Positions 5,171 through 33,427 are shown, counted from the whole stretch's first letter. The stretch: 63,690 nucleotides of DNA, filler included, from Craspedostauros australis (GCA_030167865.1; 24 parts of 24 records of this genome joined end to end with filler, not necessarily neighbours in it); one strand, 5' to 3'. A program made the numbers and translations. The notes: a model not told the origin generated them from the sequence alone.

Positions 5171-6443
5171 TTTTGGTGCAGCTTTTCACAAATACTTGGC
5201 GACAACAGTGCATCCTCTCTCCTCCTCCTCATGGCACATGAGTTCCTTGCAAATCTAATCTTATGACAGTTCCATTATTCCTGGATCCTTACATCAAGTT
5301 ATCATTTCTTGATCGCATTCGTTTCCTCGTACGCTGCCTGGCTGCCGCGAGTTCCCTCTTCATTGTGTGTGATAGTCTGTTCGGACTTCCATCTCTTGCA
5401 TTGGCACCTCTGCTTGGCTTTGGTGTCGAATTCTTGGCAGCAACATGGACGGAGGCAGAGGCTTCTCTTCTCGTATCCACCAAAATCACATCTTCGTCAC
5501 ATGGTCCATACTCGGTTCGTCTTCCTCCCGAAGTTCCTTTCGATGTGGCAGGATGGTTGTTGCCATTTCCAAAGTCACCATCGGTGCCAACAGACAATGT
5601 CGAAGAAGAGGCATCGCACGTCGTCTGACCCAAAGTTGCTGGGACACCCCTTCTTTCTCCTCTTCGTCTCTTCCGAAGTCTTGAACCAGATCGTTGCACC
5701 ACAGTTGCTCCAACATGTACATCTCTGGCTGCTGAATTGGTCGATACTGACTGGCAATCGAAGTCTCCTTCCAGTGTATTCCATTTGTTTCCATCTCTGA
5801 CCGACGCGTGTCGAAGCGATGTGTCTACCATTGATGGTGGCACATTGTTTGTTTGCTGTGCCATGGTTGTTTCGCTTCTGCGGAGGTCAGTGCCCAGTTC
5901 TTCCACAGCGTCCGCAGTGGCCACAAAGGGGCCCTCTCTCCTTGACCCTGCCTCGTAGACGTCCTGATCTCTCCTCCCCATGATCTGCATGGTTGCATCT
6001 GGCGCCATGACACCACTGCTTTCATCTGGTCCATCGGTAGAATCTGAGATGTTTGCACCAGTATTGTTCAGTCCATGGGCAGGAACAGCAGAGGCCTGGG
6101 CAAGCAATGCATCTTCGGCATCAGCTTCTGCAGTTGCAGCAATTGCCGTGGCAAGCCTTGCTCTTTCTTGGGCGATCCTTGCGGTAGCACGCTTTGCCCG
6201 GGCATCTGCCTTCTTCTGTTGGACCTCCTCATTTGTGCTGCGCTTGGTGTAGTCCAGGTTGGTTTCAGCACACCATAATGTTGGGTTGCGGTGGAGAAGA
6301 TGATGGCATGTGTTCTCGACCACCGCTGCCACATTCTTCACAGGGAAATTGCACAGTGCCAGGGTAGGTGGTATCCCTTGTGTCTCCATCCACGCCCTCT
6401 TTTCCTCATTTGACTGTGCACACACAAACATATGGCATCCCGC
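5171..6443 (-). mobile_element. Repeated Cys-rich/low-complexity ORF, 3' part (probable TE gene; paralog of 27918-29244 and 29345-31053)
   Basis: ORF 5289-6431 is highly similar to ORFs 28074 and 29501. Confidence 0.55.
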
Positions 6444-6543: not shown

Positions 6544-9500
6544 AGAAATATCGTCCGTCCATCCATCAATGGAGACGTATGGTACCAAGCGAATCTTGAG
6601 GTACCTCCCAACTAAACCTCAGATGACGATGTCATCTGACAGACCACTGCATCACCAATGGAACGTGACATCTGGAGAGCAGAAGGATGCCTACTGACGT
6701 TGACAGGATGTCAACATGTCACCACGTCGACATCTGTCTCCAGGTCAGAGCAGGAGGCAAAGATCCAATGACCGAAGGGCATCAAGATCATGGATACAGG
6801 AGGTGAACTTCAAATGGTAAGTACTCATGGAGTAAGAACCAGTAGTGAACGAACAGAGTGTCGAATGCGGAGTACGCATTGAACGTGAAGTATCGTGTAG
6901 CACGAGTACACGATATTGAGAGAGAGAGAGAGAATACGAAGAGTAGCGAGAGAACATCTCGCACACCGACTCAAAGTCGGAGACTGAACCTACAAGACAG
7001 GACAAACGTGCCGAGAGTATCGGGCAAGAGAACAGGCGTACACCGAGAGGATCGGAGTAGCCAAGTAATGAAAAAGCAAACGAACGACTATCAACCAACA
7101 CCATCTTCCACGATCGTAGGCTTCCAATCACGGAACTTGCCAACAGAGGTGACTTGCTCATCGTCTCCACCTGCAACCCGTCCTCTTGGAATGACATGTG
7201 CCTGCCGTTTCCGCTCTGCCCTTTCTCTGGCAGCCTGCTTTTGCAGTGCCACCCTCAGCTCTAGTTCGGCCACCCTCCCAACCTGGCATTCCAATTGTGC
7301 CTCCAACACCTCGGTCACCTGCGTTGTCACCGATTGATCATCTACAGACACCATTCCCAGTGCCTGGACGGTGTGGAGACTCTGCATTGTTGTTGGCGAT
7401 TGCAAGGGTCGTTGGATGCGGCTGGCCATTGGGGTCACGGGTTGGATCGTCTGTGGCCATAACGATGCCTTGCGGATGTTGCTGGTAGATGGTGAGTTGG
7501 TGGAATTGTTGTTGTTGTTGTTGTCATTGTGGAAGGGGATTGTGTGTGCCTGTGATGAAACCATGTGAGACTTGGCTCCCTTTGCGATGTCATTGCTTTG
7601 GCCTGAGCTGAAACCAAGTGAATGCATTTTTGAAAATCTGCATGTCATGCCCACAGTGGTTGTCTTCTCCTTCAGCCTTGTTGACAAAATGAGCACTTTG
7701 CATGGTGCCCCAGTGTTGTCTGACATCACATGATTGAGCCAGACAACGCCCCCAAGTGTGCCGCAAGCGGATGGGCAGAACATGGTGTCAATTGCAAAGG
7801 GCATTGGCACGAGCATTTCGCACTCGTGCCCATTCAAACAACTGGCCTTCTGCATTTGTCGGTCATGTGCTTGCGCCTTCTGTGTTGCATCCACCAACTC
7901 CCTTGCCTGCAGCTTGCATATCACCTTTGTGACACCCCCTTCTGCTCCAATTACCACTGGAGGCTGATACTTCAGTACCACAAATGAACGAGGCACGCTG
8001 TCCACATCACAATATTGAATCGTGAGCTGGGTGTCTTCTTGTATGGTCCCTGCTAGCATGTAGAAGTTGATGCTGATCATCCTGAATGCCTCTCCCTTCG
8101 GTCTCCACATTTGCGTTGTGTAGAAGACGTCCACATGTTTTGCAAGGGAACAGAAGTTGGAGACGCGAGCGTTTTCGGACATTCCAAAGAAATGCCCATA
8201 CCTTGCTGTGAGTGGATCATACAGTGGTGGGCATGACATGCCCACAACTGCAATGTCATCATCGAAATCCATGTCCGCACCAACCACTGACGAAATCTCT
8301 GCTCCAAAGTCACTGATGACCCAATCATTGTTGAGGCAGGTGTCATTTTGTGTGGACGTGTCAGCTTCGGATGCCATTTTGGAGGTTTGGCTGGGATCTG
8401 ACTCCCCATGGTGGCTGTTGTCTGTGTTGGTTGCAATGTTGCATGGTAATTCAGGCATTGTGGAAGCTTTGGTTGTTGCTGTGTTGGCCTTGGCAGGAGG
8501 GGACTTCGAAGGCTTGGTGTTGTCAAAGCCATCAGGCTCATCAATTGGGCGAAGGTGCATGCCCAGATTGCCGGACGCGTCCGGATTGAAGCCACCATTT
8601 GCTGGCACACTCAGAAACAAAAGCACAAAAACAATGAAGAGATGGAGTTCCTGGTGAGTGTTGATGTCATGGCAAGTAGTGCATGAACACAAGCTGCAGA
8701 ATGACAATTGCAACAAGGTTATCACCAGCATCCCAAACGAAGCTGCCCATCCAGTGGAATGATTCACTCTTTTGTTGCATTGGCAACGACTTACCAAAGA
8801 AGATCTTGTTCTTGACCAGCGTTTTCTTGAGTGTCACGTACCCTTTGACGAAGTTCTTTTCTGGGTACTTGTGTTGGAAATCCGGGGTATAGATACTGTA
8901 GTTTAACCTTTATACACCTTCATTTCTCAATTCCTCAAGTCGTTTGCCCATGATGATGCTGGTTGCGCCCTGAAGTTGCTCCTGCAATCATCATAGCACA
9001 CCCTCTCCATCATTCACATCTCATTGCTCATGAAAGGTTCATTTCATCATGTTCAATCATAGAGGTTTCCTCCTACACTCCTGCAGTGCATGCATGCCGA
9101 TGCTGAGTTTCACTCTCTTCCGATCAGGCATCCATCACTCATCCAGTGCACTCTTTCATGTTGTTCACTCACTCTTCTCACATGTTCACTGTTGGTCACA
9201 TTTGGTTCAGAACATAGAGTTCTGGCACGATCAGTCCAGTCCTTCGATACTGTTCCAGTCCGCGCTTTGTTCTCCTTCGGCGGTTCTCTGTTAGTCACGT
9301 AATCATGGTCTGAGTTTTGATTGATACAACAGTGATGGCATTTTCGCATGATGGCATTTTCGCATAGGTGTTTCGGTTCGACTGGTCAACCCTCGTGATT
9401 GGAACACTTCGGTGTTCCAGTCTCCCTTTCGCATCCACTGTTCGCCATGTTAGTTTGCCAATCATCTCAAAACATGTCACATCATTAGTCTGTCCTTTGT

Positions 9501-9713
9501 CCGTCATACTCTTGACACACAGAGGGCGAAGGTCCACAATCGACTTGGGAGTGTGTCCGACTTTGGTAGATCGGTCAGTCTATTTTTGGTATTATGGGAG
9601 GTGTGGCAATCTAGGATAACACGACATTGTCGTACCCTCGATTCCTGACAAGCAACAGTGGGCAGCAACAGTGGGCAGCAACAGTGGGCAGCAACAGTGG
9701 GCAGCAACAGTGG
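6544..9713 (-). repeat. Apparently exact reverse-complement duplicate of 15671-18840
   Basis: Identical mirrored ORF sets (7091..8797- equals 16587..18293+); mirrored coordinates sum to 25384. Confidence 0.95.
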
Positions 9714-9956
9714 GCAGCAACAGTGGGCAGCAACNNNNNNNNNNNNNNNNNNNNAGCAACAGTGGGCAGCAACAGTGGGCAGCAACAGTGGGCAGCAACA
9801 GTGGGCAGCAACAGTGGGCAGCAACAGTGGGCAGCAACAGTGGGCAGCAACAGTGGGCAGCAACAGTGGGCAGCAACAGTGGGCAGCAACAGTGGGCAGC
9901 AACAGTGGGCAGCAACAGTGGGCAGCAACAGTGGGCAGCAACAGTGGGCAGCAACA
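9651..9956 (+). repeat. 13-bp minisatellite (AGCAACAGTGGGC)n
   Basis: About 20 perfect units with an internal N gap; the reverse complement occurs at 15650-15733. Confidence 0.97.
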
Positions 9957-10188
9957 CAGTAGGAGCATGAGCAGCAGAAGATGCAGTGGTGGATGCAGCA
10001 ACAGCACCACAACCCAGCCGCAGTAACACCAGCGGCAGACAGCAACACCAGATGTGGTGGCAATGCAACAAACAATGATGCCAGCAGCGCCGCAGCCAAG
10101 CTGAAGCAGCAACTAGAGCACCATACCACAGCAAATACAGAAATATAGACATTGGATACTCTTTATTGAATTCAGTCCTCTCAGATCT

Positions 10189-11551
10189 CTAGTTCAGTTT
10201 TGTATGGTAGGCCTGCACTGTCTGCGAGGATGTCTTTGATGTTCGTTTTCGTTTCTTGGGTTGTCCTTGTTCTGGTTGTGGTACGATCGATGCAGTTTCC
10301 TTTTCTTCTCGAGTTCGACTGCAAGTGCGAACAGTTGATTTGGACTTTGGTGGTAACGGTTTTCTCTTTGTGGTTGGTTTGGTTGGTGGCGATGATGGTG
10401 GTGGTTTCAGTGCACTTGTTAGCCGGAGTTTCACCGTTGATTTTCGCGGCGGTGTCGCGTTGGCCGTTGGTATGGTTGTTGATGTGAGTGCTGGTGGGGG
10501 TTTGAATCCGGCGGTTGTCGCCATTTTCTCCCTTGGTCTTGTTCTGTTGAAATTGGCCTGCAGCCACTCATCTGTTGTCTGAAAGCGAAGCAATCAATCA
10601 TGCTCGACCAATTCTTGCACCACTGTTTCCTGTCCCTCAGCCCCTGTGGCCTGCTTACGAGTGGATGGGTCATTCAGCTTGTAGCAGTCATCAAGCAATG
10701 CTTTCACACCCAACACCAGACCTGCTTTCCTTGTGGATTTGGTGACTGCCCATCCAGCGCACATCTTTGGTGGCGTCGAGGCTGTTCTGGTAGCATTTCC
10801 TGGGCGTGTCCACAATACATGACTCTCCGCACCGCTCATGTTGACAGCTGCACAGAACACATTTGGGTTGTTGTGCATCTCTCCATCTGATTGCTCCTTG
10901 GCAACATTAGCCAGGCTCTTTGCCTTGCGCCGCTGTGTTAGTGACTTGGTTGTGAGAGCAGGCCCATCCGACTCCTCACCAACCTTGCAGTTGACCATCA
11001 GTTCTTGCCCAACAAATCGAACCAAATAGTCCCAGCTGATGATCTCAGGGTCAGTAAGATTCGAAGATGAATACACCTCCACACGACCATCGAACCATTT
11101 GAAGTGATGGGTGGCTCTGACTCCGACCTTCTGTGTCCTGAACTTGATGTCATTGATGCCGTTGGATACAATCAACCCTTTCAATTCCGATGCATCCACA
11201 AACACAGCCGTGGTTCCTGCAATCTCCGCAAAGTTCATTGCCTCGAAGATGCCCAATTCTGTGGTGATCTGGTTCCCTTCCTTGATGTATGCATTCAGCA
11301 CATGGGCGATGAAGCTGAAGTGAGTGTCCAGCCGACTCTACCCTATCTGTGCTTCGGTGTACACCCATTCCCTGATCTTGGGAAGATTCTTATTGTCTGC
11401 ATGGGCATTCCAGCCAAAGATGAATGTGATCAATTGCTGGCTTGCGAAGCAACTAGCATTGTCACTTTGCACCATGATATCCTTCACATTAGGGTATTGT
11501 GCAACATTAGGGTATTGGGCATGAATCTGCTCCATCAGGAACGACAAGACA
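10189..11551 (-). pseudogene. Sola3-like DDD transposase, C-terminal part, 5'-truncated at a module end
   Basis: 'QSDNASCFASQQ...WVYTEAQIG' and C-terminal 'GWAVTKSTRK...'; stops; homologous to 12176-14607. Confidence 0.65.
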
Positions 11552-12175
11552 TGTCAGGAATCGAGCGTGTGACTATGTTGCGATACTCGTAGATTGCCGC
11601 ACCACCCAATACTATCATGAGGCCGAATATAATCAACTCATGGTGATCACACTTGGACAACCTTGTCCCTGTCATGAAGCCTGTCCCTATCATGAAGCCT
11701 GTCGCTACCAGCTTTTCCATTCTGTTCAGCTCTTGCTTCTCTCTGTCTGTGAAGAACAGTGTGACTGGGACACCCTTGAAAGAGTGTCTCAATCGCTTGC
11801 GATCTATTGGCACGATCGATTTGTTCCTTTTTGTGATGTTCCAATCCATACTTCGTCCTCCTTCATTATCCATTCACATACAGCCTCATGTTCTGGGTTG
11901 TGAAGGATAAAACAGGAATGGCGCATGTGCATACATGTTGGCACACCAGTCAACAGCCATGCTCAGAACACTTCATCATTCCAGTCTTTCTTCATTGCTC
12001 ATAGTTCACCATGTCTGTGTCTCATCCATCCGCCTTGTGAAATGCAGGGAGGACAGGCTGCAAGAGAATCAGAAGTGTGTCCGTCTTTGATGGATGGACT
12101 GGTTCAATATTGCTAGTATGGGAGGTGCGGCAATCACAGGGTAAGTCAACTAAATCGTACCCTCGATTGACGACA
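11552..12175. mobile_element. 624-bp module with about 65-bp imperfect terminal inverted repeats (arm A / arm A')
   Basis: Left TGTCAGGAATCGAGCGTGTGAC...GATTGCCGCACCACCCAATACTA; right (rc) TGTCGTCAATCGAGGGTACGAT...GATTGCCGCACCTCCCATACTA. Confidence 0.8.
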
Positions 12176-14607
12176 CATACTGCCATAGACAATGAATCTG
12201 TTGATACCATCATCGAGGAGGATGCTGTGGTGTATGATGCTGCGATGTATGATGATGACAGTGCAGAGCTCCTCAACAATGAGATGGCAAGTGATGACAG
12301 CCAGGAGGATGGCAGAGATCTTGAGTATGATGAAATGGAACATATGTGGACAACATGGGATGGCAATACAAAGTCTTGGGAGAAACTGTCCTCCATCATC
12401 AGCATGGCCCAACACAACATGCATGGTTTGAGAGACTTCTGCAAACAAGGATACAGCACGATTCCTGGCAAACATGAGACACAGAAGTGGTCAATGATCA
12501 ACAGAGCATGGGAGCGGTTGATCACGATCTCATCGCACATCATCTTTCCCAACAGACCATGTCTGCGCCAATTTGCCAATGTGATGAGATTTGTCAGAGA
12601 TGACAAACGCCTGCCTTAACTCGCCTTGGAAGAAACTGTCTGCCTGATGCTCTTCTTTGGCAATAGAGAGGTGTCCAAAAATGGCAGGTGCAATCCTCGC
12701 GTCAACTTCAACCTGCAAAGACTGTGCTGCCATCCTCACGCACCACTACAAGTGCCTCTCTCCAGAAGATCAGGCAAAGGTCATCTCCATGCGGACTAAA
12801 ATGCACAGCTCCAAGCACAAACGGCTGATCCGTGCCACCAGAACAATTCTCAGGAGCGGACCAATTCCTGTTGGGAAGGCGAGAAGCCGCCTTGGTCGTG
12901 AGAAACTGCAGGAGGTAACTTCCTTCCTCGCCTCTGTCACAAATTTCAAGCCAGGCAGATCGTGCAAGGTGAAGCTCCATGGCGTGGTGTACGATGGTTT
13001 GCCTATCTTCCTCCGCGGCAACCAGACTGTCAGACAGCTATTTCGCCAATACAAGCAGACAGCAACAAAACTGGTGGGATTCAACACGTTCCACAAGGTC
13101 TTGCCCTCCTCACCAAACATGGCAACTGCAAAACAGGTCTTTCATCCTACTATGTGGATATTTTGGAAATGTCCATCAAGTTTACCGATATGCTCATGCG
13201 AATCATCGAAATGCTGGGCACAGATGATGCCACCAAGGATCTGCGCAAAGAGGCACTCGAAATTGGCGAAGAGTGGAACGAAGTCTTCACCTTGTCAAAT
13301 GGGAGTACACACCTTCTCATGTGCACATCCAACGTGAGGACGACCACCTCCACTCAGCACAATTTGCTCTCACCACCGGCGAATGTGACGCCCAACAGGA
13401 AGGCTGTGCACGTTGTGCGCATGCAATGATGTTCTTCTCCTTCCGTGTCACGGACTACCTTGAACGCACCAAGGCTCACATCCACAACCAACAGGACCAA
13501 GCAGAGTTCAACACCATGTTTGGGGCTGTGTCTCTGTGTGATAAGCAGCTTGGTGTGTACATGTCACACAAGGTGAGGGCAATGGTGCAATTCGAGCAAA
13601 TCCGAAAGGAGAAGGAATCACTTATCAATGAAGAAGACAAAATGATCATTGTGCTTGATCACAAGCAGAAGATATTGCCCATCTGCAGCAAAGAATGTCA
13701 ATCAGCATATTTTGCCAAAAAGGGAATGTCACTTCTGGGTGTGATGACCATTACTTATGAAGGAGGTGAGTACCACTATCGCTTTGTGGACATGCTGATA
13801 AAAAACTACCATGCACAAGATCAAGTGCAGGTTGCAGGACTTCTCAAGCTACTTATGGCAGACATCTTTCCTGTCATGCATCCGGACAAGAAAAAACGTC
13901 ATCCAGAGTGACAACGCAAGCTGCTTTGACAGCCCATCATTGATGCACTACATTTATGGGCTGAACCGAGGAGAACATGATGTGAAATTCAACCCCGAAG
14001 GCACCGCGGAAGAAAAGGCCCAATCATACACCGATGCAAAAATGGAGATCAACAACATCACCACCCATCCTGATGCCTCCTGCAGGACAAGGCAATGAAT
14101 AAGCCACCCAACCACCCAATCCACGCCCAAGATTGCCAAGTGCATCTACACTGAAGCACAGACTGGAAAGGGGCTCCTTGATGCACATTTCAGCTACACC
14201 AATGGCAGGCTCATATGGTACATTGATGGGGCCAAAATGGTAAGGAACAAACAGAAGAGGATGTTTTCCATGTGCTTGTGGAAGGGGAAAACTTATTGGC
14301 ACCGCTCTTGTTTCCAGTCAACGAGAAGCGAAAATCGACCTTCTCCACCACGATTAAGCTCCGGACAAGAGCAACCCACCAGGTGGACATCCTTGACAAT
14401 TGTGTACATGTCACAGCATCATCCGGAGTGTCCAAACCAGAAGTTGTTGCACACACACAGCTTGATCTGTACTACATGCAGGACCTTGACATCTGCTTGT
14501 TGGAAGGGGAAGTGAAACCAGTCACTGCGGCGTTCACATCCAAACCACAACCAAAGCAAACCGCTCAAGCAACGGCGAACGCGAAAAAAGAAACGCGAGC
14601 AAACTGA
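12176..14607 (+). pseudogene. Sola3-like DDD transposase pseudogene (frameshifted)
   Basis: Catalytic blocks 'VLDHKQKILP..KECQSAYFAKKGMSLLG', 'QSDNASCF' and 'YTEAQTGKGLLDAHF' spread across shifted frames; family assignment from recalled motifs, not from a search. Confidence 0.7.
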
Positions 14608-15131
14608 TGTCAACTGGTGTCACACTGGGAGGCACGATGTGGTATGTACTGCACGAATGTAGATAGAAAACACTGTGGATATGTATGATAAGGTACAGCA
14701 GTGAAGCAAAATGAGACACCTGGAGTGTATGAGACAAAACAAAAAGAAGTAGGGGAAAGAAATCATGTACACAAGGAGGAACATTGGGTGGTACTGTGGA
14801 TTATACTTGCTATCTAAATTGGAATTGAAGGAGATGAAGAGAGTGATCTCAGAGTTCTAAAAACGGTACAATCAAATGACAGTTAGATCTACGTTGACTA
14901 CATCCCGGATTTTCCATATGTATGGATTGCGCCCGTGTCCCGCTGGTGAAGGCCTCACAAGTAGGATGAAGCAGGATGGCATCCATTTCGTATGTTGCTT
15001 GCATCCAGAAGGGAGGCAACCGAAGATCGCACGGGAAAGTCGCACATATTTTGAAACGCCTCTTGTTCCGTTGTTGCCTTGTGACCCGACCTGACCCGAC
15101 CCGACCTGACCGCCTTGCGTAGTTACCAACA
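14605..15131. mobile_element. Non-coding module containing a degenerate arm B (CCCGGATTTTCCATA at 14918) and ending TTACCAACA
   Basis: 14790-14918 resembles 37850-37989 and 1100-1191; the right end CCAACA abuts a truncated transposase; left boundary approximate. Confidence 0.5.
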
Positions 15132-15549
15132 TACAAAGTGGAAATGTGTATTGATTGGGCACTTGCCAGTTTGAGCTTCAGTATTCACCCATTGCATGAT
15201 TTTTGGTAGATTCGCCATTGCCTCTTGGTTCTGCATGTGGTAGATGAATGGGACAAGTTGTTGACTTGCAAAGCAGCTCGCATTGTCACTCTTGATGACA
15301 AGGGTTTTGGCGCCCGGATGCATCTCCTGTACAAGCCCTGGCAAAATGGTCAACACCGCCGCCACCATCCTGTGGTCTTGAGCTTTGTGACCTTTGACCA
15401 GGAGGTCAATGAAACGATGGTGACAGTCACCTTCTTTGGAAACTGTGGTCATGACACCAAGCAGCGACATGCCATTCTTCCCGAAGAAATCCTGTTGTGA
15501 CTCCAATCGCTCTGAAGGTAAGATCTTCTGTTTGAAGTCAACGATGCAA
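15132..15549 (-). pseudogene. Sola3-like transposase catalytic fragment
   Basis: 'ESQQDFFGKNGMSLLGVMT...KSDNASCFASQQ...NTEAQTGK'. Confidence 0.7.
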
Positions 15550-15733
15550 NNNNNNNNNNNNNNNNNNNNNNNNNNNNNNNNNNNNNNNNNNNNTTAATTA
15601 ATTAANNNNNNNNNNNNNNNNNNNNNNNNNNNNNNNNNNNNNNNNNNNNGTTGCTGCCCACTGTTGCTGCCCACTGTTGCTGCCCACTGTTGCTGCCCAC
15701 TGTTGCTGCCCACTGTTGCTGCCCACTGTTGCT

Positions 15734-16512
15734 TGTCAGGAATCGAGGGTACGACAATGTCGTGTTATCCTAGATTGCCACACCTCCCATAATACCAAAA
15801 ATAGACTGACCGATCTACCAAAGTCGGACACACTCCCAAGTCGATTGTGGACCTTCGCCCTCTGTGTGTCAAGAGTATGACGGACAAAGGACAGACTAAT
15901 GATGTGACATGTTTTGAGATGATTGGCAAACTAACATGGCGAACAGTGGATGCGAAAGGGAGACTGGAACACCGAAGTGTTCCAATCACGAGGGTTGACC
16001 AGTCGAACCGAAACACCTATGCGAAAATGCCATCATGCGAAAATGCCATCACTGTTGTATCAATCAAAACTCAGACCATGATTACGTGACTAACAGAGAA
16101 CCGCCGAAGGAGAACAAAGCGCGGACTGGAACAGTATCGAAGGACTGGACTGATCGTGCCAGAACTCTATGTTCTGAACCAAATGTGACCAACAGTGAAC
16201 ATGTGAGAAGAGTGAGTGAACAACATGAAAGAGTGCACTGGATGAGTGATGGATGCCTGATCGGAAGAGAGTGAAACTCAGCATCGGCATGCATGCACTG
16301 CAGGAGTGTAGGAGGAAACCTCTATGATTGAACATGATGAAATGAACCTTTCATGAGCAATGAGATGTGAATGATGGAGAGGGTGTGCTATGATGATTGC
16401 AGGAGCAACTTCAGGGCGCAACCAGCATCATCATGGGCAAACGACTTGAGGAATTGAGAAATGAAGGTGTATAAAGGTTAAACTACAGTATCTATACCCC
16501 GGATTTCCAACA
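15734..16512 (+). mobile_element. 779-bp TGT...ACA module, arm A to arm B (mirror at 8872-9650)
   Basis: TGTCAGGAATCGAGGGTACGAC ... ACCCCGGATTTCCAACA. Confidence 0.8.
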
Positions 16513-18238
16513 CAAGTACCCAGAAAAGAACTTCGTCAAAGGGTACGTGACACTCAAGAAAACGCTGGTCAAGAACAAGATCTTCTTTGGTAAGTCGTTG
16601 CCAATGCAACAAAAGAGTGAATCATTCCACTGGATGGGCAGCTTCGTTTGGGATGCTGGTGATAACCTTGTTGCAATTGTCATTCTGCAGCTTGTGTTCA
16701 TGCACTACTTGCCATGACATCAACACTCACCAGGAACTCCATCTCTTCATTGTTTTTGTGCTTTTGTTTCTGAGTGTGCCAGCAAATGGTGGCTTCAATC
16801 CGGACGCGTCCGGCAATCTGGGCATGCACCTTCGCCCAATTGATGAGCCTGATGGCTTTGACAACACCAAGCCTTCGAAGTCCCCTCCTGCCAAGGCCAA
16901 CACAGCAACAACCAAAGCTTCCACAATGCCTGAATTACCATGCAACATTGCAACCAACACAGACAACAGCCACCATGGGGAGTCAGATCCCAGCCAAACC
17001 TCCAAAATGGCATCCGAAGCTGACACGTCCACACAAAATGACACCTGCCTCAACAATGATTGGGTCATCAGTGACTTTGGAGCAGAGATTTCGTCAGTGG
17101 TTGGTGCGGACATGGATTTCGATGATGACATTGCAGTTGTGGGCATGTCATGCCCACCACTGTATGATCCACTCACAGCAAGGTATGGGCATTTCTTTGG
17201 AATGTCCGAAAACGCTCGCGTCTCCAACTTCTGTTCCCTTGCAAAACATGTGGACGTCTTCTACACAACGCAAATGTGGAGACCGAAGGGAGAGGCATTC
17301 AGGATGATCAGCATCAACTTCTACATGCTAGCAGGGACCATACAAGAAGACACCCAGCTCACGATTCAATATTGTGATGTGGACAGCGTGCCTCGTTCAT
17401 TTGTGGTACTGAAGTATCAGCCTCCAGTGGTAATTGGAGCAGAAGGGGGTGTCACAAAGGTGATATGCAAGCTGCAGGCAAGGGAGTTGGTGGATGCAAC
17501 ACAGAAGGCGCAAGCACATGACCGACAAATGCAGAAGGCCAGTTGTTTGAATGGGCACGAGTGCGAAATGCTCGTGCCAATGCCCTTTGCAATTGACACC
17601 ATGTTCTGCCCATCCGCTTGCGGCACACTTGGGGGCGTTGTCTGGCTCAATCATGTGATGTCAGACAACACTGGGGCACCATGCAAAGTGCTCATTTTGT
17701 CAACAAGGCTGAAGGAGAAGACAACCACTGTGGGCATGACATGCAGATTTTCAAAAATGCATTCACTTGGTTTCAGCTCAGGCCAAAGCAATGACATCGC
17801 AAAGGGAGCCAAGTCTCACATGGTTTCATCACAGGCACACACAATCCCCTTCCACAATGACAACAACAACAACAACAATTCCACCAACTCACCATCTACC
17901 AGCAACATCCGCAAGGCATCGTTATGGCCACAGACGATCCAACCCGTGACCCCAATGGCCAGCCGCATCCAACGACCCTTGCAATCGCCAACAACAATGC
18001 AGAGTCTCCACACCGTCCAGGCACTGGGAATGGTGTCTGTAGATGATCAATCGGTGACAACGCAGGTGACCGAGGTGTTGGAGGCACAATTGGAATGCCA
18101 GGTTGGGAGGGTGGCCGAACTAGAGCTGAGGGTGGCACTGCAAAAGCAGGCTGCCAGAGAAAGGGCAGAGCGGAAACGGCAGGCACATGTCATTCCAAGA
18201 GGACGGGTTGCAGGTGGAGACGATGAGCAAGTCACCTC
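16513..18238 (+). pseudogene. Spliced gene fragment of unknown function, truncated at both ends (predicted intron 16590-16782)
   Basis: Open exon KYPEKNFVKGYVTLKKTLVKNKIFF, GTAAGT donor at 16590, pyrimidine tract and CAG at 16782; the splice rejoins the frame of the 568-aa ORF, which runs on into the next module. Confidence 0.55.
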
Positions 18239-19047
18239 TGTTGGCAAGTTCCGTGATTGGAAGCCTACGATCGTGGAAGATGGTGTTGGTTGATAGTCGT
18301 TCGTTTGCTTTTTCATTACTTGGCTACTCCGATCCTCTCGGTGTACGCCTGTTCTCTTGCCCGATACTCTCGGCACGTTTGTCCTGTCTTGTAGGTTCAG
18401 TCTCCGACTTTGAGTCGGTGTGCGAGATGTTCTCTCGCTACTCTTCGTATTCTCTCTCTCTCTCTCAATATCGTGTACTCGTGCTACACGATACTTCACG
18501 TTCAATGCGTACTCCGCATTCGACACTCTGTTCGTTCACTACTGGTTCTTACTCCATGAGTACTTACCATTTGAAGTTCACCTCCTGTATCCATGATCTT
18601 GATGCCCTTCGGTCATTGGATCTTTGCCTCCTGCTCTGACCTGGAGACAGATGTCGACGTGGTGACATGTTGACATCCTGTCAACGTCAGTAGGCATCCT
18701 TCTGCTCTCCAGATGTCACGTTCCATTGGTGATGCAGTGGTCTGTCAGATGACATCGTCATCTGAGGTTTAGTTGGGAGGTACCTCAAGATTCGCTTGGT
18801 ACCATACGTCTCCATTGATGGATGGACGGACGATATTTCTAATTCTCTCAGAAATCGTCGATTGCAAATTTCCTCCAGAAATTCTGCTCATTTTCGTGTG
18901 TTCCATTTCCACTGTAATTCTGACGAATCACAGCATACTATCGACACGAATGTAGTTGTACCGTCCAAGTACGTATGAGAGAATAACGGGTGAACGATGC
19001 ACATATACACGTACATCTCGACATATACTCACATGTACATCTCGACA
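18239..19047 (+). mobile_element. 809-bp TGT...ACA module, arm C to arm D
   Basis: Starts TGTTGGCAAGTTCCG (also at 38142) and ends CATGTACATCTCGACA (also at 31236, 60976). Confidence 0.8.
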
Positions 19048-20585
19048 GGCAGGTGCTGTTGTGGTGGTGGTGCTGAGTGTAGATTTATCCTGTCGTATTT
19101 TTGAATTGCGGCGAAGCGCGAAATGAGCGCAGTGCATGGGGTCTTCTTCGCACTTGATCTGCATGTGCGAATCAGTATACTCCCACTTGAGGAATGTGAT
19201 CATTAGGTCCAGATCGCGCACCAATGTCTCACAGGTTTGAATATACTCCACAGTTAAGTCGTCGTGCCCGTCATCACTGTTGAATGAATCCTCGAGTAGG
19301 GTATTCAAGCGCACGAGCATCTCCTTCAGCGTCTTTGTTGCCATCCAGAAGTAGTTTTCAAAAGAGGAGAGACCAGTAACCACTTTGCCTCTGCGCGTGA
19401 GCATTCCTGTCATTGATCGGAATGCTTGCTCCCCAACTGGGTTGTTCGTCGTAGTTTTGTACATTGGAACAGTTCGCCCACGCTCGTTCCGCCACGTTCG
19501 GATACTGGCACGTTTTCAAATATCACCCCTCCCCATTTGATATTGTGACAAAGGCCTGCCTTGTATGTGGTAGTGTTGCTGATGAAGGACACCACGCCAG
19601 CCAAGCTGTAAGCGCTGACACGATAGTTGTAGACAGCAGCACCAGCCACGTTGCCCTCGCGCAACAGCTCATAGTAGTTGCGCAGAGTGAAGAGCTGGCC
19701 CCGTGTGACAGTGTATTGCTGTGGCAAGAGGCTGAGACGCTGAACGTCGGGAAGTTCGCCCTTGGATTGGGTGAGGAGGTTTGTGCACTGGCGTGGCAAG
19801 GCAGACATGGCAAGAATGCACCTTGCTGTTCGTGCAATGTTCTTCTCGCCGACGAGGCAAATCGTGTATAGATTGGGAGCCAGCTTGACTGGCGGCAAGT
19901 CCACTCCTGCGCACATGAACGCAACCACTTGTTCCATCTGTGGAACTGGCAAGGTCATGGCTGGGATCAGTGCTTACCACAGCGCATTGGAGGCCACCAC
20001 AAAGATCTTCTTTGCTTTGCTTCACACTTGCTTGTCAGAATTGCGCCCCAACACAAGCCTGTAACGCGGCAAGTCGGCCAGCACAGTCGCAAGGTTCTTC
20101 ACTCCAAGCTCTTGCAAAACCTCGTGGATGGTTTCAAACGCATCTCTCTTGTTCGTGTTGTGCTTGTTTTGGAATCTTCCCGCGTTTGATTTCCTGCTCT
20201 TGATTTTGTTGCGTCCCTTGGGGCGGAAGGCTTCGTCGTCACCAGCCTTGCGGCATTGGATGCGTTTGCCTTTCTTTGCTGGTTGGATAGTCGGTGCGGG
20301 AAGGGGTGCGGGGAAAGCTGGAGGAGTCGGGACGCAGACTTTTACATGCACTTTTGTCCCAGCATTGCAGCCCTGTCCAAAGGCCTGCACTGTGACCTTA
20401 GAGGTGTCAAGAATCATGCCATTGTTGGTGGTGATGTGCACATGGACAAAGAGCTTCTCGTTGGTTGCATTGAGTGTGCGATTTTGCTCGTGGTTGCCTA
20501 AGATCTCAACGTCACACTCGTTGTCGAAGGTCGCGCCTTCGAGCACAGAAGGGAGGAGCTTGTCTGTTGCAGAAGCCCGATTGTG
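19048..20585 (-). pseudogene. Sola3-like transposase gene, N-terminal part, 3'-truncated at arm D
   Basis: 'TGLSSFENY...FLKWEYTDSHMQIKCEEDPMHCAHFAL' is homologous to 'TGLSSYYV...VKWEYTPSHVHIQREDDHLHSAQFAL' in 12962-13911. Confidence 0.65.
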
Positions 20586-25095: not shown

Positions 25096-26247
25096 AGAAG
25101 AGGATAGGCTGAACCAGGGGCCAGAACATGGCCCAAGGTAGGAACTTGGTGAGCACATCTGCCACATTCTGAGTTCCTTTGATCTTGATGAAGAAGAGGA
25201 CTCCTGATGCCACAGCCGAACGCACGCGATGGTATGCGAGGGCATTGTGACGCTTGGATAGCATGCTCATCGGGATTGTGGACGATGTGATGACCGATTG
25301 ATTGTCACCAAACATCCAGCTTGGACCGTCGAGAGGGATGCCCATCTCTCGAAGTGCAAGACGAAGGGAGATGATCTGCTCGGTGGCTTGACGAGCCGCC
25401 ACGAACTCTGATCCGTAGGTGGCTGTCTCAACGGTTGCTTGCCTCTTGCTGAACCATTCAATGGGTGTCTGGTTCATCAGATGCAGCACTCCAGTGGCGG
25501 ATCTGCCAGTCACTTTGCAGTGGAGCAAGTTGGCGTCGACGAAGGACGTCATTCGCACAGGCTTGCCCTTGGGCGACGGAACCTCATGGGGAAGCTCCTC
25601 TGCTGTGTTACCATACACAGAGTAGAGCCAGTCATGCTTGGGGACTTCGAAGTGGTCTTCATGCTGTGGGATTCCGGTACGGAAGCGGATGGAGCCGTCT
25701 GGATGCTTCCGAAGGTAGCCGTAGATACGCTTGGCCCGTTCGAGGTGGCCTTGACGAGGAGATGCTCTGAATCGAGCCAGGGTCATCACAGCGACGGAGA
25801 TATCGAATCTTCCAAGCGAGATGCACCACTGAAGGGCACCGATCAAGGACATGAACTTCCTCTTGTCCAATTCGGAGAGCTCTGGTGAAGTATCCAACTC
25901 TGGACTGTCGGATTTGTCCAGAGGACAGCTTGCCTTCTTTGGGAGTGCTCCAAACATGCGTTCGAAGTTCATCAACATCCTTTTGATGTAGGAATGTGGA
26001 CTCATCTTCAGAGTGCCATCTGGATCTCGACCAAAGTCAGCTCCCAGATGATATTCGATGGGACCGACGCCTTTCAGCTTGTAGCCGTACTTGGATGTCA
26101 ATGCGTCAAAGAAGGAATGGGGATCCTTCATGACTGCCATCAAGTCGTCCACATAGACGCAGATGTACTCCCAGTGGGAGCCAGCATCATGCATCCAGAC
26201 GTCAGGGTCAGAACGACATTGGGTGAAACCCATGTCTCTGAGAGTGT
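25096..26247 (-). mobile_element. pol: Ty1/copia reverse transcriptase to RNase H (partial)
   Basis: 'YICVYVDDLM', 'FVDAN...TGRSATG', 'ETATYGSEFVAAR', 'FGDNQSV', 'NVADVLTK'. Confidence 0.95.
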
Positions 26248-27917: not shown

Positions 27918-29244
27918 GACGAGGTCCAACAGGCTGAGGCTGATGGCAACTATTCTGGCACTATATCAATCCATTGCAAAAGGATCCCACACGGTATACC
28001 AAGGCTCTTCGAAGGCAATCCTCCAACAAATTCGAGTCCGGTACAACCAGCGGAGCTACGAGGTATCCTTTGCATGAAGGCCACCGCAGATACCCCAAGG
28101 CAACACTTGATACGCACCAACATGAAGCAAAGAGAGCACATCCCCAGGAAGTGCGTCGCCAAACGAGGAACCTGCGTCGTTTGTGCGAATGTGACTACCT
28201 GGGTGTGCGCTGGATGCCACATGTTCGTGTGCGCACAGTCGAATGAGGAAAAGAGGGCATGGATGGAGACACAGGGGGTATCACCTACCCTGGCACTTTG
28301 CAATTTCCCTGTGAAGAGTGTGGCAGCAGTGGTCGAGAACACATGTCATCATCTTCTCCACAGCAACCCAACATTATGGTGTTCTGAAACCAACCTGAAC
28401 TACACGCAGCGCAATACCAACGAGGAGGTCCGGCAGAAGAAGGCAGATGCCCGGGCAAAGCGCGCTACCGCAAGGATCGCCCAACAAGCAGCAAGGCTTG
28501 CTACGGAAATGGCTGCAACCGCAGAAGCTGATGCCGAAGATGCATTGCTTGCCCAGGCCTCTGCTGTTCCTGCATATGGATTGAACACGACTGGTGCAAA
28601 CATGTCAGATTCTACCGATGGACCAGATGGAGGCAGGGGTGCCATGGCGCCAGATGCAACCATGCAGATCATGGGGAGGGGAGATCAGGACGTCAACAAG
28701 GCAGGGGCAAGGAGAGAGCCCCCCTCTGCGGCCTCCACGCAGAATGCGCATGCGCTGGGCAGTGACTGCCGCAGAAGTGCAACAACCATGGCACAGCAAA
28801 CGGACAATGAGATACCACCATCAATGACAAACATGTTGGTGCAACATACATCGGTCAGAGATAGAAACAGACGGAATGTACTGGAAGGAGACACCGATTG
28901 CCAGTCAGTATCGACCAATTCAGCAGCCGGAGATGTACATGTTGGAGCAACTGTGGTGCAACGATCTGGTTCAAGAATTCGGAAGAGACGAAGAGGAGAA
29001 CGAAGGATCATCCCAGCAACTCTGGGTCAGACAACATGCAATGCCTCTTCTTCGCCATTGTCTGTTAGCATCGATCCTCGCTTTGGAAACGGCAACGGCC
29101 ATCCTGCCACAGCGGAAGGAACTTCAGGAGGAGGACGAACCGAGTATGGAGCATGTGACGAAGATGTGATTTTCGTGGATATGAGAAGGGAAGCCCCTGC
29201 CTCCATCCATGTTGCTGCCAAGAATTCGACACCAAGTCCAAGCA
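27918..29244 (+). mobile_element. Repeated Cys-rich ORF (CxxC...W-x-CxxCH...C), 5'-partial; probable TE gene
   Basis: Frame open from the contig start; 'CVVCANVTTWVCAGCHMFVC' resembles piggyBac-type C-terminal Cys-rich domains. Confidence 0.5.
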
Positions 29245-29344: not shown

Positions 29345-31053
29345 GACGAGGTCCAACAGGCTGAGGCTGATGGCAACTATTCTGGCACTATATCAATCCA
29401 TTGCAAAAGGATCCCACACGGTATACCAAGGCTCTTCGAAGGCAATCCTCCAACAAATTCGAGTCCGGTACAACCAGCGGAGCTACGAGGTATCCTTTGC
29501 ATGAAGGCCACCGCAGATACCCCAAGGCAACACTTGATACGCACCAACATGAAGCAAAGAGAGCACATCCCCAGGAAGTGCGTCGCCAAACGAGGAACCT
29601 GCGTCGTTTGTGCGAATGTGACTACCTGGGTGTGCGCTGGATGCCACATGTTCGTGTGCGCACAGTCGAATGAGGAAAAGAGGGCATGGATGGAGACACA
29701 GGGGGTATCACCTACCCTGGCACTTTGCAATTTCCCTGTGAAGAGTGTGGCAGCAGTGGTCGAGAACACATGTCATCATCTTCTCCACAGCAACCCAACA
29801 TTATGGTGTTCTGAAACCAACCTGAACTACACGCAGCGCAATACCAACGAGGAGGTCCGGCAGAAGAAGGCAGATGCCCGGGCAAAGCGCGCTACCGCAA
29901 GGATCGCCCAACAAGCAGCAAGGCTTGCTACGGAAATGGCTGCAACCGCAGAAGCTGATGCCGAAGATGCATTGCTTGCCCAGGCCTCTGCTGTTCCTGC
30001 ATATAGATTGAACACGACTGGTGCAAACATGTCAGATTCTATCGATGGACCAGAGGGAGGCAGGGGTGCCATGGCGCCAGATGCAACCATTCGGATCATG
30101 GAGAGGGGAGATCCGGACGTCAACAAGGCAGGGGCAAGGAGAGAGCCCCCCTCTGCGGCCTCCACGCAGAATGCGCATGCGCTGGGCAGTGACTGCCGCA
30201 GAAGTGCAACAACCATGGCACAGCAAACGGACAATGAGATACCACCATCAATGACAAACATGTTGGTGCAACATACGTCGGTCAGAGATAGAAACAGACG
30301 GAATGTACTGGAAGGAGACACCGATTGCCAGTCAGTATCGACCAATTCAGCAAGTGGAGATGTACATATTGGAGCAACTGTGGTGCAACGATCTGGTTCA
30401 AGAATTCGGAAGAGACGAAGAGGAGAACGAAGGATCATCCCAGCAACTCTGGGTCAGACAACATGCAATGCGTCTTCTTCGCCATTGTCTGTTAGCATCG
30501 ATCCTCGCTTTGGAAACGGCAACGGTCATCCTGCCACAGCGGAAGGAACTTCAGGAGGAGGACGAACCGAGTATGAAGCATGTGACGAAGATGTGATTTT
30601 CGCGGATACGAGAAGGGGAGCCCCTGCGTCCATCCATGTGGCTGCTGAGAATTCGACACCAAGTCCAAGCAGAGGTGCCAATGCAAGAGATGGAAGTCCG
30701 AACAGACTATCACACACAATGAAGAGGGAACTCGCGGCAGCCAGGCAGCGTACGAGGAAACGNNNNNNNNNNNNNNNNNNNNNNNNNNNNNNNNNNNNNN
30801 NNNNNNNNNNNNNNNNNNNNNNNNNNNNNNNNNNNNNNNNNNNNNNNNNNNNNNNNNNNNNNNNNNNNNNNNNNNNNNNNNNNNNNNNNNNNNNNNNNNN
30901 NNNNNNNNNNNNCACCAGAATCCGGTGCCGGGATTGTGAAGGAGACAGTGCCGAAAAACTGATGCATGATGAGAAGCACGACAAGCATGTTGGTGGACGC
31001 AGGTACCAGACATCGAAATAGCAAGGTAGAATATGATTACCCCAGATCCCATG
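29345..31053 (+). mobile_element. Near-identical second copy or allele of 27918-29244
   Basis: Starts at the same base as the previous contig; few substitutions. Confidence 0.6.
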
Positions 31054-31154: not shown

Positions 31155-31236
31155 CAAGTGCGTATGAGAGAATAGCGGGTGAACGATGCACATATACACG
31201 TACATCTTGATATATACTCACATGTACATCTCGACA
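31155..31236 (+). mobile_element. Arm D terminus (contig starts inside the module)
   Basis: Matches 18966-19047; ends TCTCGACA. Confidence 0.85.
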
Positions 31237-32780: not shown

Positions 32781-33054
32781 TGCCACGCTTCTGCCATGTC
32801 ATATGTGGTGTGGGACGCCTCCTGGCGTCGCTGGATGTGTGACTACTGCAATCAGAGGTGTTGAGAGAGAGAGAGAAGCTGGAAGTGACTGCAAGTGACT
32901 GCAAGTGGATGCTGTGTGGTGAGTGATGGCAGTTGCTGTGCATTCCATTTTGGGTGTGTGAGTTGTGTATGGCTAATGGAATTGTATTGATAGGGTGTCA
33001 GCCATTCCACAGTGTGTTCCAACTGTGTGTGGAGAGTGCGATAGGTGCCTCGAA

Positions 33055-33427
33055 TGTGTGTGTGTGTGTGAGTGTTAGTGTGAGTGTTAGTGTTAGTGTG
33101 AGTGTGAGTGTGAGTGTGAGTGTGAGTGTGAGTGTGAGTGTTAGTGTGAGTGTGAGTGTGAGTGTTAGTGTTAGTGTGAGTGTTAGTGTGAGTGTTAGTG
33201 TGAGTGTTAGTGTGAGTGTTAGTGTGAGTGTGTAGTGTGTAGTGTGTAGTGTGAGTGTGAGTGTTAGTGTGAGTGTGAGTGTGAGTGTGAGTATTAGTGT
33301 GAGTGTAAGTGTGAGTGTGAGTGTGAGTGTGAGTGTGAGTGTGAGTGTGAGTGTGAGTGTGAGTGTGAGTGTTAGTGTAAGTGTGAGTGTGAGTGTGAGT
33401 GTTAGTGTGAGTGTTAGTGTTAGTGTG
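33055..33427 (+). repeat. (GTGAGT/GTTAGT)n hexamer microsatellite
   Basis: Directly visible; produces spurious poly-SV and poly-TH ORFs. Confidence 0.97.

Follow-up and report, generated by a model that had tools for sequence, protein, structure and literature searches.

The region at positions 6544-20585 was found to be a patchwork of transposable element (TE) pieces, which we read, with about even confidence, as a decayed TE nest on poorly assembled, unplaced contigs, with neighbouring insertions that would later have been reshaped by deletion or by recombination among the copies. Positions refer to the window, the whole 63.7-kb stretch of DNA that was analysed. Two kinds of element would make up the nest, namely at least four diverged, pseudogenised copies of a DNA transposon (B, C, D and E) and non-coding repeats of the T and M4 types.

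T is a non-coding repeat family of 0.6-0.8 kb with conserved ends. Its 16-nt consensus TGTYRGRAATCSRGGG, common to the left and right ends, had 11 matches in the window (9 of them independent) against 0.01 expected, which confirmed the original prediction that the modules carry real conserved ends. The TGTYR form by which these had been described is uninformative alone: 469 TGTYR (about one every 130 bp) and 434 YRACA were counted in 61,012 bases, and 1064 pairs of the two lay 500-900 bp apart. When up to 3 mismatches were allowed, the left end TGTCAGGAATCGAGGGTACGAC was matched 7 times (6 independent loci) against 0.00 expected. The right end CCCCGGATTTCCAACA was matched 4 times (3 independent loci) against 0.57 expected, a number reached in none of 100 shuffles. 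Outward-facing ends of both types were present at 510-1191 and 15734-16512. The former (M5, + strand) is a complete unit with an N103 gap inside, beginning with TGTCAGGAATCGAGGG... and ending with ...CCCCGGATTTCCAACA.

The T ends follow the pattern TGTYRG...CYRACA and form an imperfect terminal inverted repeat of 16-19 bp, in which left and right ends agreed at only 13 of 19 positions. Ends of the type TGTCAGG.../...CCAACA were kept at 9 independent places, showing the TG...CA and short inverted repeat of LTRs, and TGTCA or TGTTG at both end types corresponds to a TGTNR terminus. Termini of 16-22 bp were perfectly preserved among units with non-aligning interiors, and about 60 bp at one end was better conserved than the remainder. 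The left end of a young subfamily (232 bp; 41450-41681, - strand, with copies of 99.6-100% identity at 45444-45675 and 46922-47153) opens contigs 15, 16 and 17 with a different flank each time. The sequence supports the view that the T ends are true termini of mobile elements, of the type TGTNR...CA.

As the original prediction had stated, the module flanks were unrelated: the outside sequence differed at all copies compared (7 left ends, 3 ...CATCTCGACA ends and 3 right ends). It had likewise reported no PBS, PPT or common internal sequence after the ends, and none was shared next to the 13 ends examined; nor did T occur in the 63.7-kb window as paired direct repeats around a PBS, gag-pol and PPT. 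Target site duplications (TSDs) between 3 and 10 bp long were sought, the boundaries being allowed to move by +/-4; there were none at 15734-16512 or 18239-19047 and only trivial ACA-type matches at 11552-12175. The best case remained the TSD-like flanks GACC / GACT of 510-1191 (3 of 4 bases), in agreement with the earlier remark that no clean TSD is present. The sole TSD-like match across modules, TGCT to the left of 15734 and to the right of 37989, was at chance level (expectation of about 0.2 over about 60 end pairs).

T may belong to either of two classes: its copies would be solo LTRs, or else non-autonomous elements partnering an enzyme of the integrase type. In our judgement, identical short termini with non-aligning interiors fit non-autonomous DNA transposons better, for which they are more typical. 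Ginger1 and Ginger2 are described as having TGTNR termini, TIRs of 40-270 bp and 4-bp TSDs at a CCGG/CCGT or RTATAY target (PMC2836005), and GingerRoot as having TIRs of 100-150 bp and 6-bp TSDs, often with gene fragments and with many unpaired TIRs (PMC6839031). As far as these descriptions go, T resembles them in its TGTNR...CA ends, its terminal inverted repeat, an integrase-related transposase and non-autonomous copies that share the ends alone. It differs in that its inverted repeat is an imperfect 16-19 bp rather than about 40-270 bp; the 135-bp 'arms' of 11552-12175 were not counted as a long TIR because they belong to two different copies. It differs also in lacking a 4-bp or 6-bp TSD with target preference, and CCGG, CCGT and RTATAY were absent from the T junctions. 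Pfam recognised no integrase of the Gypsy type, with its rve core and H2C2 zinc finger, and the local transposase was not linked to the T ends. Compared with Ty1/Copia solo LTRs, T is alike in its length of 0.6-0.8 kb, non-coding nature, TG...CA ends and better-conserved end of about 60 bp, but no paired copy, PBS, PPT, internal region or 4-6 bp TSD was observed at T. Copia-type fragments lie elsewhere in the window, at 25097-26245 (RVT_2, whose 26.0 bits fall short of the 31.6-bit cut-off) and 59128-60315 (gag_pre-integrs, above cut-off). As in a MITE or other non-autonomous TIR element, T is short and non-coding with inverted ends; the TSD and autonomous partner of such an element were not found, the latter after a search for an element sharing the T ends.

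The gene fragments beside the modules were confirmed to be broken copies of a DDE transposase. Fragment B (10606-11551, - strand) matches residues 659-950 of P0001 and contains an in-frame stop; its 5' truncation coincides with the T end at 11552, and the frame is open to this junction. Fragment C (12176-14604, + strand) has significant homology to P0001 residues 250-740 (reaching P0003 residue 279 at 14487) in at least four frames with a stop, and contains neither the Cys-rich N-terminus nor the conserved C-terminal domain. Fragment D (14982-15549, - strand; P0001 residues 581-768) contains a stop and runs off the contig. Fragment E (19048-20585, - strand) is frameshifted, with homology at 19114-19886 to P0001 residues 228-476, and its frame is open for 22 codons further, up to the module end at 19047. 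The fragments overlap in residue coverage but are only 28-51% identical to one another, and so represent four separate copies and not halves of one. Stops or frameshifts were found in all four, implying a locus old enough for DNA loss.

It is supported that B-E are decayed paralogs of a DDE transposase of about 1000 aa that adopts the RNase-H fold and has its catalytic residues in D-35-E spacing. The AF2 model of a relative, P0028, had a pLDDT of 94.3, and VIA-align matched it to Mos1 with a Z of 11.2 (rmsd 3.2, 165 aligned) and to the SIV, PFV and HIV integrases with Z of 10-10.9; the best Foldseek match reached only an E of 2.7e-3. Judged from this model, the transposase core is closest to the Mos1 transposase and retroviral integrases. 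Across 38 sequences, D583 was near-invariant and D671 and E707 were invariant, which together with the modelled fold gives the B-E family the RNase-H-like core and D, D, E residues of the DDE/retroviral integrase superfamily. Neither the fragments in the window nor P0001-P0003 gave a Pfam match that reached threshold, and rve was sub-threshold in 4 of the 38 members (best E 0.0043).

Two of the four modules between 6544 and 20585 turned out to be broken or fused. Module 11552-12175, proposed as one unit, consists of two T left ends placed head to head. Its left arm (11552-11686, + strand) is a piece of a T left end that most resembles the 510 copy (81% to 510-644, over the first 62 columns), and its right arm (11808-12175, - strand) is an inverted left-end fragment of the 15734 subfamily, covering T positions ~1-428 (78% and then 61% to 15734-15882). 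The arms were 68% identical to each other over columns 1-62 and 49% beyond. Each is thus closer to another subfamily than to its partner, which shows the module to be a composite of two different truncated T left ends; the presumed breakpoint was placed only to 11687-11807, the unassigned stretch between the arms. The flanks are two different transposase paralogs, as had been claimed, namely B (- strand, open to the junction) and C (+ strand).

The boundaries proposed for the module at ~14605-15131 were wrong. Its T-like portion is 14725-14918 alone (+ strand; 70% to 37788-37932, 75% to 1102-1185), a degenerate T right part that ends with ...TCCCGGATTTTCCATA and whose left terminus is missing. 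The proposed left 'end' near 14605 is merely the stop codon of C, and the right boundary at 15131 falls within the coding homology of D, which continues to 14982. The actual right junction is close to 14918, with homology to D starting again at 14982. By alignment, 14725-14918 is shown to be a truncated T right end.

Module 18239-19047 (M4), whose family we propose to be related to T, was borne out in its sharp left boundary and conserved right end (...CATCTCGACA), but not as a single unit, for no copy spans both ends. Three pieces were distinguished: 18230-18828, common to 38135-38710 (87%); 18829-18965, which is unique; and 18966-19047, common to the starts of contigs 11 and 24 (95-98%; 31155-31236 on the + strand and 60895-60976, respectively). 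Of M4, 38142-38710 thus contains only about 590 bp from the start, while just the last 82 bp occur in contigs 11 and 24. In contig 11 this right-end copy adjoins a tandem repeat of 184-193 bp. Contig 13 holds truncated and inverted pieces similar to those of the studied region, which argues for the nest. There, M6 (37704-37989, + strand), a T right part truncated where the contig begins, ends with ...CCCCGGATTTCCAACA, and the supposed module at 38142-~38938 is, from its sequence, a composite of several pieces rather than one module. Of these, 38142-38800 (M7) comprises an M4-like part (38142-38710) followed by 38711-38800, an inverted copy of 37704-37793 (93%, 90 bp); the sequence after it could be assigned to no known piece.

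Module 15734-16512 (M3, 779 bp, + strand) is the sole complete unit with unrelated flanks among the four modules. The flanks (TTGCT / CAAGT, without TSD) are satellite on the left and exon 1 of ORF A on the right. Orphan gene fragment A (16513-18293, + strand) has a putative exon at 16513-16589, a putative intron at 16590-16783 (GTAAGT...AG) whose removal restores the frame, and an ORF that ends with the stop codon 18291-18293. Exon 1 contains no ATG, and neither homologs nor a Pfam family were found. A complete unit of this kind could be generated by transposase-driven alternative transposition, in which the ends of two nearby copies are used together (reversed-ends or sister-chromatid type), with breakpoints exactly at the termini and the TSD split between copies. 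The inverted-repeat terminus of T makes cut-and-paste mobility plausible, and the locus also contains copies of a DDE transposase with the integrase/Mos1 fold. As established for maize Ac/Ds (PMC4270019, PMC3744419, PMC9910405), the mechanism also gives breakpoints exactly at transposon ends and copies with unrelated flanks; unlike there, no active transposase or split TSD is seen here, and the pattern is known from sequence alone. A link between the T ends and the B-E transposase was looked for and none was found: no transposase copy with natural ends was present in the window, and the T consensus occurred in 0 of 8 related loci, all short. Since, in addition, all four local copies are dead, no significant split TSD was found and the internal breakpoints in 11552-12175 and 14605-14918 are left unaccounted for, we regard alternative transposition as quite improbable. 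Deletion or unequal exchange between two direct copies gives the same complete product at 15734-16512.

Assembly misjoins were also considered, in which walks through collapsed repeats would have joined flanks from different genomic copies that were never adjacent. The window consists of 24 contigs of 1.2-9 kb, all small, unplaced and connected by artificial N44-TTAATTAATTAA-N44 linkers alone, and the studied region of two of them, contig 3 (6544-15549, interrupted by N20 at 9735-9754) and contig 4 (15650-20585). One locus was assembled twice: 6544-9734 is the reverse complement of 15650-18840, with 100% identity over 3191 bp. Module 15734-16512 is therefore the same DNA as 8872-9650, and module 18239-19047 the same DNA as part of 6544-7145. 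One of the two copies was scaffolded over the N20 gap, which interrupts a 13-bp satellite (9651-9956; unit AGCAACAGTGGGC, 23.5 copies) adjoining the T left end at 9650 and occurring again at 15650-15733. Moreover, 6 of the 24 contigs start inside a repeat at a fixed offset (15-17 at 232 bp, 11 and 24 at 82 bp, 13 within M6). Misjoins would yield unrelated flanks and no TSD at each module, as observed, and assembly error could mimic the whole pattern. However, the assembler breaks at near-identical repeats (contigs 11, 13, 15-17 and 24) and does not traverse them. The modules it did traverse are diverged from other window copies (<=87% for 18239-19047, 62-81% for T). Neither the head-to-head 11552-12175 nor the truncated 14725-14918 is expected from a collapsed-repeat walk. 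We consider misjoins unlikely.

The original prediction had instead invoked a dedicated non-autonomous system that integrates each TG...CA end independently and builds libraries of TE fragments. Genuine TG...CA termini, unrelated flanks, the lack of a TSD at 15734-16512 and possibly 18239-19047, and the presence of an integrase-fold enzyme family are consistent with it. Yet with one module fused, one truncated and one of unproven unity, unrelated flanks and missing TSDs are expected in three of the four without unusual integration. The 3/4 TSD-like match at 510-1191, the mixed orientations of the fragments, a locus not marked as a unit and the failure to find an independent copy of any junction type also argue against such a system, which we hold to be very improbable. 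Its minor alternative, serial adjacent deletion, comes close to the reading that we favour, except for the dedicated system. Simple nested insertion with collinear flanks and TSDs, already discounted there, indeed does not match the sequence.

In the decayed nest, T copies would first have inserted independently into transposon copies and other sequence, cutting the host exactly at TG/CA. The DNA between neighbouring T copies would then have been lost by deletion or unequal exchange, the breakpoints lying within these copies and the relative orientation of the two setting the product: an inverted pair may give a left-end/left-end fusion (11552-12175), T joined to non-T sequence a truncated T (14725-14918), and a direct pair a complete-looking chimeric unit, as which 15734-16512 may be read. 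Every product would have unrelated flanks and no TSD pair left. Against this nest stands the apparent completeness of 15734-16512, of which the window offered no second copy that would reveal chimerism; 18239-19047 would add a second complete module with unrelated flanks if it is one unit. Moreover, 3-4 rearranged modules in 11 kb are many if such events are rare. An empty site, a parental copy, a reciprocal product and the other half of a flank were all missing from the window.

A model of DNA loss by illegitimate recombination was reportedly put forward by Devos et al. 2002. In the diatom Phaeodactylum tricornutum, LTR elements without TSDs are described that are flanked by halves of another element, these halves being found today at different loci; this is ascribed there to recombination between family members (PMC2806351). 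Within the scope of that description, the nests are alike in missing TSDs, flanks from other elements, outer breakpoints exactly at termini and truncated copies; they are unlike in that the repeats here are short and non-coding, with no full-length parent in view, and that recombination here is deduced. Ordinary insertion followed by DNA loss would be a better account of the patchwork than a novel mechanism of DNA shuffling.

The 24 contigs of the window, which are 1.2–9 kb long and joined by linkers (N44-TTAATTAATTAA-N44), are not one chromosome stretch but a collection of eukaryotic pieces that are unplaced and rich in repeats. The region under study comprises contig 3 (6544–15549) and contig 4 (15650–20585). 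The sequence at 6544–9734 and the reverse complement of 15650–18840 were found to match at 100% identity along 3191 bp, and the two contigs were therefore regarded as one locus. The first half of the joined locus consists of transposase fragment E (+), the module at 18239–19047, orphan gene fragment A (–), the module at 15734–16512 and a 13-bp satellite. The second half consists of a 640-bp stretch, transposase fragment B (–), the module at 11552–12175, transposase fragment C (+), the zone at ∼14605–15131 and transposase fragment D (–). An N20 gap is located at 9735–9754 of contig 3, within the satellite, and the order of the two contigs across the satellite depends on a scaffold gap. The evidence for this locus comes from the window itself and from distant relatives.

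The original prediction described this locus as a patchwork of TGT...ACA modules with ends of the form TGTYR. Taken alone, this form was uninformative: TGTYR and YRACA occurred 469 and 434 times in 61 012 bases, i.e. one site per 130–140 bp, and 1064 pairs in the window were 500–900 bp apart. Conserved termini at copies with different flanks were nevertheless confirmed for T, a non-coding repeat family with TG...CA ends. Its left end TGTCAGGAATCGAGGGTACGAC gave seven matches in the window with up to three mismatches (0.00 expected), representing six independent loci because the matches at 9629 and 15734 belong to one and the same locus. The right end CCCCGGATTTCCAACA gave four matches at three independent loci (0.57 expected), and the consensus TGTYRGRAATCSRGGG gave 11, nine of them independent (0.01 expected), which faced outward every time. 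The left and right ends are imperfect inverted copies of one another, and complete units with one end of each type were found at 510–1191 and 15734–16512. Within the left end, a stretch of about 60 bp was 66–81% conserved among units whose interiors do not align. At the start of contigs 15, 16 and 17 stands one shared 232-bp stretch of T left end (41450–41681, 45444–45675 and 46922–47153; 99.6–100% identity), with a different flank after it in each. This identity indicated that at least one T subfamily is young; the assembler broke the three contigs at it. A second end type, ...CATCTCGACA, was observed at 19047 and at the starts of contigs 11 and 24, again with differing flanks. No sequence outside the ends was shared among the 13 aligned ends (seven left, three right and three of the second kind), and as predicted, no PBS, PPT or shared internal region was found beside them. 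Two TG...CA ends adjoin tandem repeats: the T left end at 15734/9650 adjoins the 13-bp satellite (9651–9956, 15650–15733), and the ...CATCTCGACA end at 31236 adjoins a 184–193-bp tandem repeat (31237–32782), after which comes (TGTGAG)n at 33055–33428, within a stretch of strong G skew.

Inspection of the individual modules gave one clean case of the predicted pattern. The module at 15734–16512 is a complete 779-bp T unit with the satellite at its left and exon 1 of A at its right, and no TSD was found at any shift tested. ORF A (16551–18293) is an orphan, for which there was no Pfam family and no homolog in a near-length search; the best Atlas lead, with a score of 0.78, was not usable. An upstream exon (16513–16589) is in frame with it via a putative GTAAGT...AG intron at 16590–16783. 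Because this exon lacks an ATG and begins at the T end, A looks 5′-truncated there. A natural stop of A inside 18239–19047, which would leave its frame uncut, was considered and rejected: the 18 stop-free codons were not significant and the contig 13 homology boundary was sharp. In the other complete unit, 510–1191, the flanks are GACC/GACT; frame continuity across it was uninformative, since two frames are open at the left.

For the module at 11552–12175, the TG/CA ends, the different flanks and the missing TSD were confirmed, but not its being a single unit. Both outer ends are left-type and mutually inverted, and the two arms resemble each other (68% across the first 62 columns, then 49%) less than they resemble other subfamilies. 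The left arm was 81% identical to the copy at 510, and the right arm 78% and then 61% identical to the copy at 15734, with homology to T position ∼428. The module is best read, from these alignments, as two different T copies, internally truncated and fused head to head, with a breakpoint within 11687–11807. On this reading B and C are the original flanks, one from each copy, and both the unrelatedness of the flanks and the missing TSD are to be expected.

The zone at ∼14605–15131 did not hold up as a module. Its right boundary is wrong because the homology of D (...LLDASN...) crosses 15131 and continues to 14982, and what was taken for its left end is C's stop codon. T-like sequence is confined to 14725–14918, which has a degenerate right terminus; it was 70% identical over 148 bp to the right part of 37704–37989 and 75% identical over 87 bp to that of 510–1191. 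No left T terminus was found in the zone. The T-like piece is a single T copy that has been truncated: it adjoins D at its right end, and its other side is an internal breakpoint against C. At the left boundary of the module at 18239–19047, homology with contig 13 breaks off sharply, and its right end is common to contigs 11 and 24. No copy in the window spans both parts, 18230–18828 being the sole part common to contig 13 and 18829–18965 being unique, and it may be one unit or a two-copy fusion like 11552–12175. The sequence at 38142–∼38938 is not one module but a composite of a piece like that at 18239–19047, an inverted 90-bp piece of 37704–37793 and further sequence.

At no module were two halves of one sequence found on both sides, which excluded simple nesting. 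Several other candidates were rejected. Decay of old TSDs did not fit flank matches of 0–1/5, which are at chance level and not partial. The TGCT left of the T unit at 15734 (15730–15733) recurs right of 37989 (37990–37993), but ∼0.2 such matches are expected by chance over ∼60 end pairs, and the match is not significant; beyond the terminal 16 bp the units at 15734 and 37989 cannot be aligned. The interval 11552–14918, taken as one transposase-bearing element with T ends, has no TSD, and its flanks B and D are not collinear because both cover residues 659–768 and are only 51% identical. Nor was a TSD found for 15734–19047 as a composite transposon between two left-type ends.

We put at about even the chance that the patchwork was made by T insertion and then by deletion or unequal exchange between neighbouring copies. 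T copies would insert independently, cutting the target exactly at TG/CA. Later deletion or unequal exchange, with breakpoints inside two neighbouring T copies, would remove the intervening DNA. Inverted neighbours would give a left/left fusion (11552–12175), the joining of a T copy to non-T sequence a truncated T (14725–14918), and direct neighbours a complete-looking unit that would be chimeric (15734–16512). The three kinds of module observed are covered by a single ordinary process, to which a side remark of the original prediction, on serial adjacent deletion, came close. In the diatom Phaeodactylum tricornutum, LTR elements without TSD, flanked by pieces of another element now located elsewhere, are described in PMC2806351, where recombination between family members is given as the cause. 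That assembly misjoins made the module junctions instead is rather unlikely. A bin of unplaced contigs is exactly their setting, one 3.2-kb stretch is present in two assembled versions, and six of the contigs begin inside repeats at fixed offsets; however, the assembler evidently stops at near-identical repeats instead of traversing them, the modules it did traverse are diverged from every other copy seen, and a head-to-head fusion is not what misjoins create.

The four transposase fragments are paralogs of ∼1000-aa public proteins (P0001, P0002). B (10606–11499, minus strand) corresponds to P0001 residues 659–950, C (12690–14487, plus strand) to residues 250–740 and further to residue 279 of protein P0003, D (14982–15545, minus strand) to residues 581–768, and E (19114–19886, minus strand) to residues 228–476. 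Their overlapping residue ranges and pairwise identities of only 28–51% indicated four separate copies, not halves of one, and stops or frameshifts were present in all four. A large number of clusters belong to the family, 2512 at E ≤ 0.001, falling to 1144 at ≤ 1e-10 and to 220 at ≤ 1e-30, and none of 10 clusters looked up had an informative name. No Pfam match at threshold was obtained for 14 window pieces, for P0001–P0003 or for 22 of 24 long relatives; rve came up below threshold in four of 38 relatives, at a best E of 0.0043. The AlphaFold core model of the related protein P0028 (66-sequence alignment; pLDDT 94.3, pTM 0.88) predicted the beta-beta-beta-alpha-beta-alpha-beta order of an RNase-H fold. 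Foldseek with this model gave weak matches only (best E 2.7e-3). VIA-align against 48,161 chains ranked Mos1 transposase first (Z 11.2, rmsd 3.2, 165 residues aligned), followed by SIV, foamy-virus and HIV integrases (Z 10–10.9), and the best 20 matches were all DDE transposases or integrases. Among 38 aligned members D671 and E707 were invariant and D583 nearly so, a D-35-E spacing which is that of retroviral integrases. The label of transposase was thereby upheld, and an enzyme of the integrase/mariner-like DDE kind is supported by the predicted fold and the aligned residues. Family members (P0001–P0153) carry an N-terminal Cys-rich motif, and most public members are on contigs of 3.3–4.7 kb, about transcript size.

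Relatives of the transposase were found at eight short loci in metagenome contigs and at none in the genome_contigs and viral_contigs collections. The T consensus was present in none of the eight, and the autonomous integrase-coding element with the same ends that had been sought was not found among them. The 22-nt T left end had no match in metagenome contigs, and T terminal sequences gave only chance primer matches in the literature. One metagenome locus, L005, codes for a relative at 25% identity and has inverted repeats (1–119 and 6197–6315, 98% complementary) of at least 119 bp that extend past both contig ends, consistent with a TIR DNA transposon whose true termini would lie beyond the contig.

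Alternative transposition, in which the ends of two different copies are used together, is described as established for Ac/Ds (PMC4270019, PMC3744419, PMC9910405). It would account for complete units with unrelated flanks, yet it leaves the internal breakpoints unexplained, no link was seen between T and the local transposase, and every local transposase copy is dead; we regard it as improbable here. We consider it very doubtful that the local DD35E family with its integrase fold acts on T units as non-autonomous substrates and often joins their two ends to different targets, which may proceed through Mu-like strand transfer, uncoupled or replicative, or through alternative transposition. If so, each event would rearrange the locus, leaving complete units such as 15734–16512 with unrelated flanks and no TSD, and a eukaryotic TG...CA element would be a rearrangement engine. 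The original prediction of a dedicated DNA-shuffling system, with each end integrated independently, is hardly credible: it has no evidence of its own after the composite modules are set aside, and ordinary loss suffices for modules that are composite or truncated.

As to the class of T, Rfam and tRNA scans of the window gave no matches, and a tRNA-derived SINE was thus ruled out by these tests. T resembles Ginger and GingerRoot, as these are described in PMC2836005 and PMC6839031, in its TGTNR...CA ends and inverted termini, in an integrase-related enzyme (for T, nearby) and in non-autonomous copies with the ends alone in common. It differs in lacking the TIR length and TSD that define them there, and the enzyme local to T misses Pfam rve. 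Its size, its TG...CA ends and the better conservation of one end are like those of a solo LTR, but the window yielded neither a paired copy nor a PBS, PPT or TSD for it. Copia-type fragments are present there. As a matter of judgement we lean slightly towards a non-autonomous DNA element, because 16–22 bp of each end are perfectly conserved among units with unalignable interiors. Pfam matches in the other large ORFs of the window were limited to a Copia-type RVT_2 match at 25097–26245 (26.0 bits, below the 31.6-bit cut-off) and, above cut-off, gag_pre-integrs at 59128–60315, Harbinger-type DDE_Tnp_4 at 55865–56488 and ankyrin repeats at 52667–53806. None of these four adjoins a T end. A repeated ORF family of 384–473 aa without Pfam match was observed on contigs 2, 9 and 10 (5320–6443, 27918–29244 and 29345–30762; 87–98% DNA identity).

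Overall, the predicted conserved ends and unrelated flanks and the clean case at 15734–16512 stand, but several module boundaries and units do not. What these unplaced contigs hold is an ordinary TE graveyard. Its odd junctions can be explained in ordinary ways, and it is therefore not to be taken as a new DNA-shuffling system. Two by-products of modest value are the T repeat family with its sharply conserved TGTYRGRAATCSRGGG ends, and a large, uncharacterised family of ∼1000-aa DD35E transposases without a Pfam model at threshold. If this family were the autonomous partner of TG...CA elements, the Ginger-like set of integrase-derived DNA transposons known from protists would become wider.
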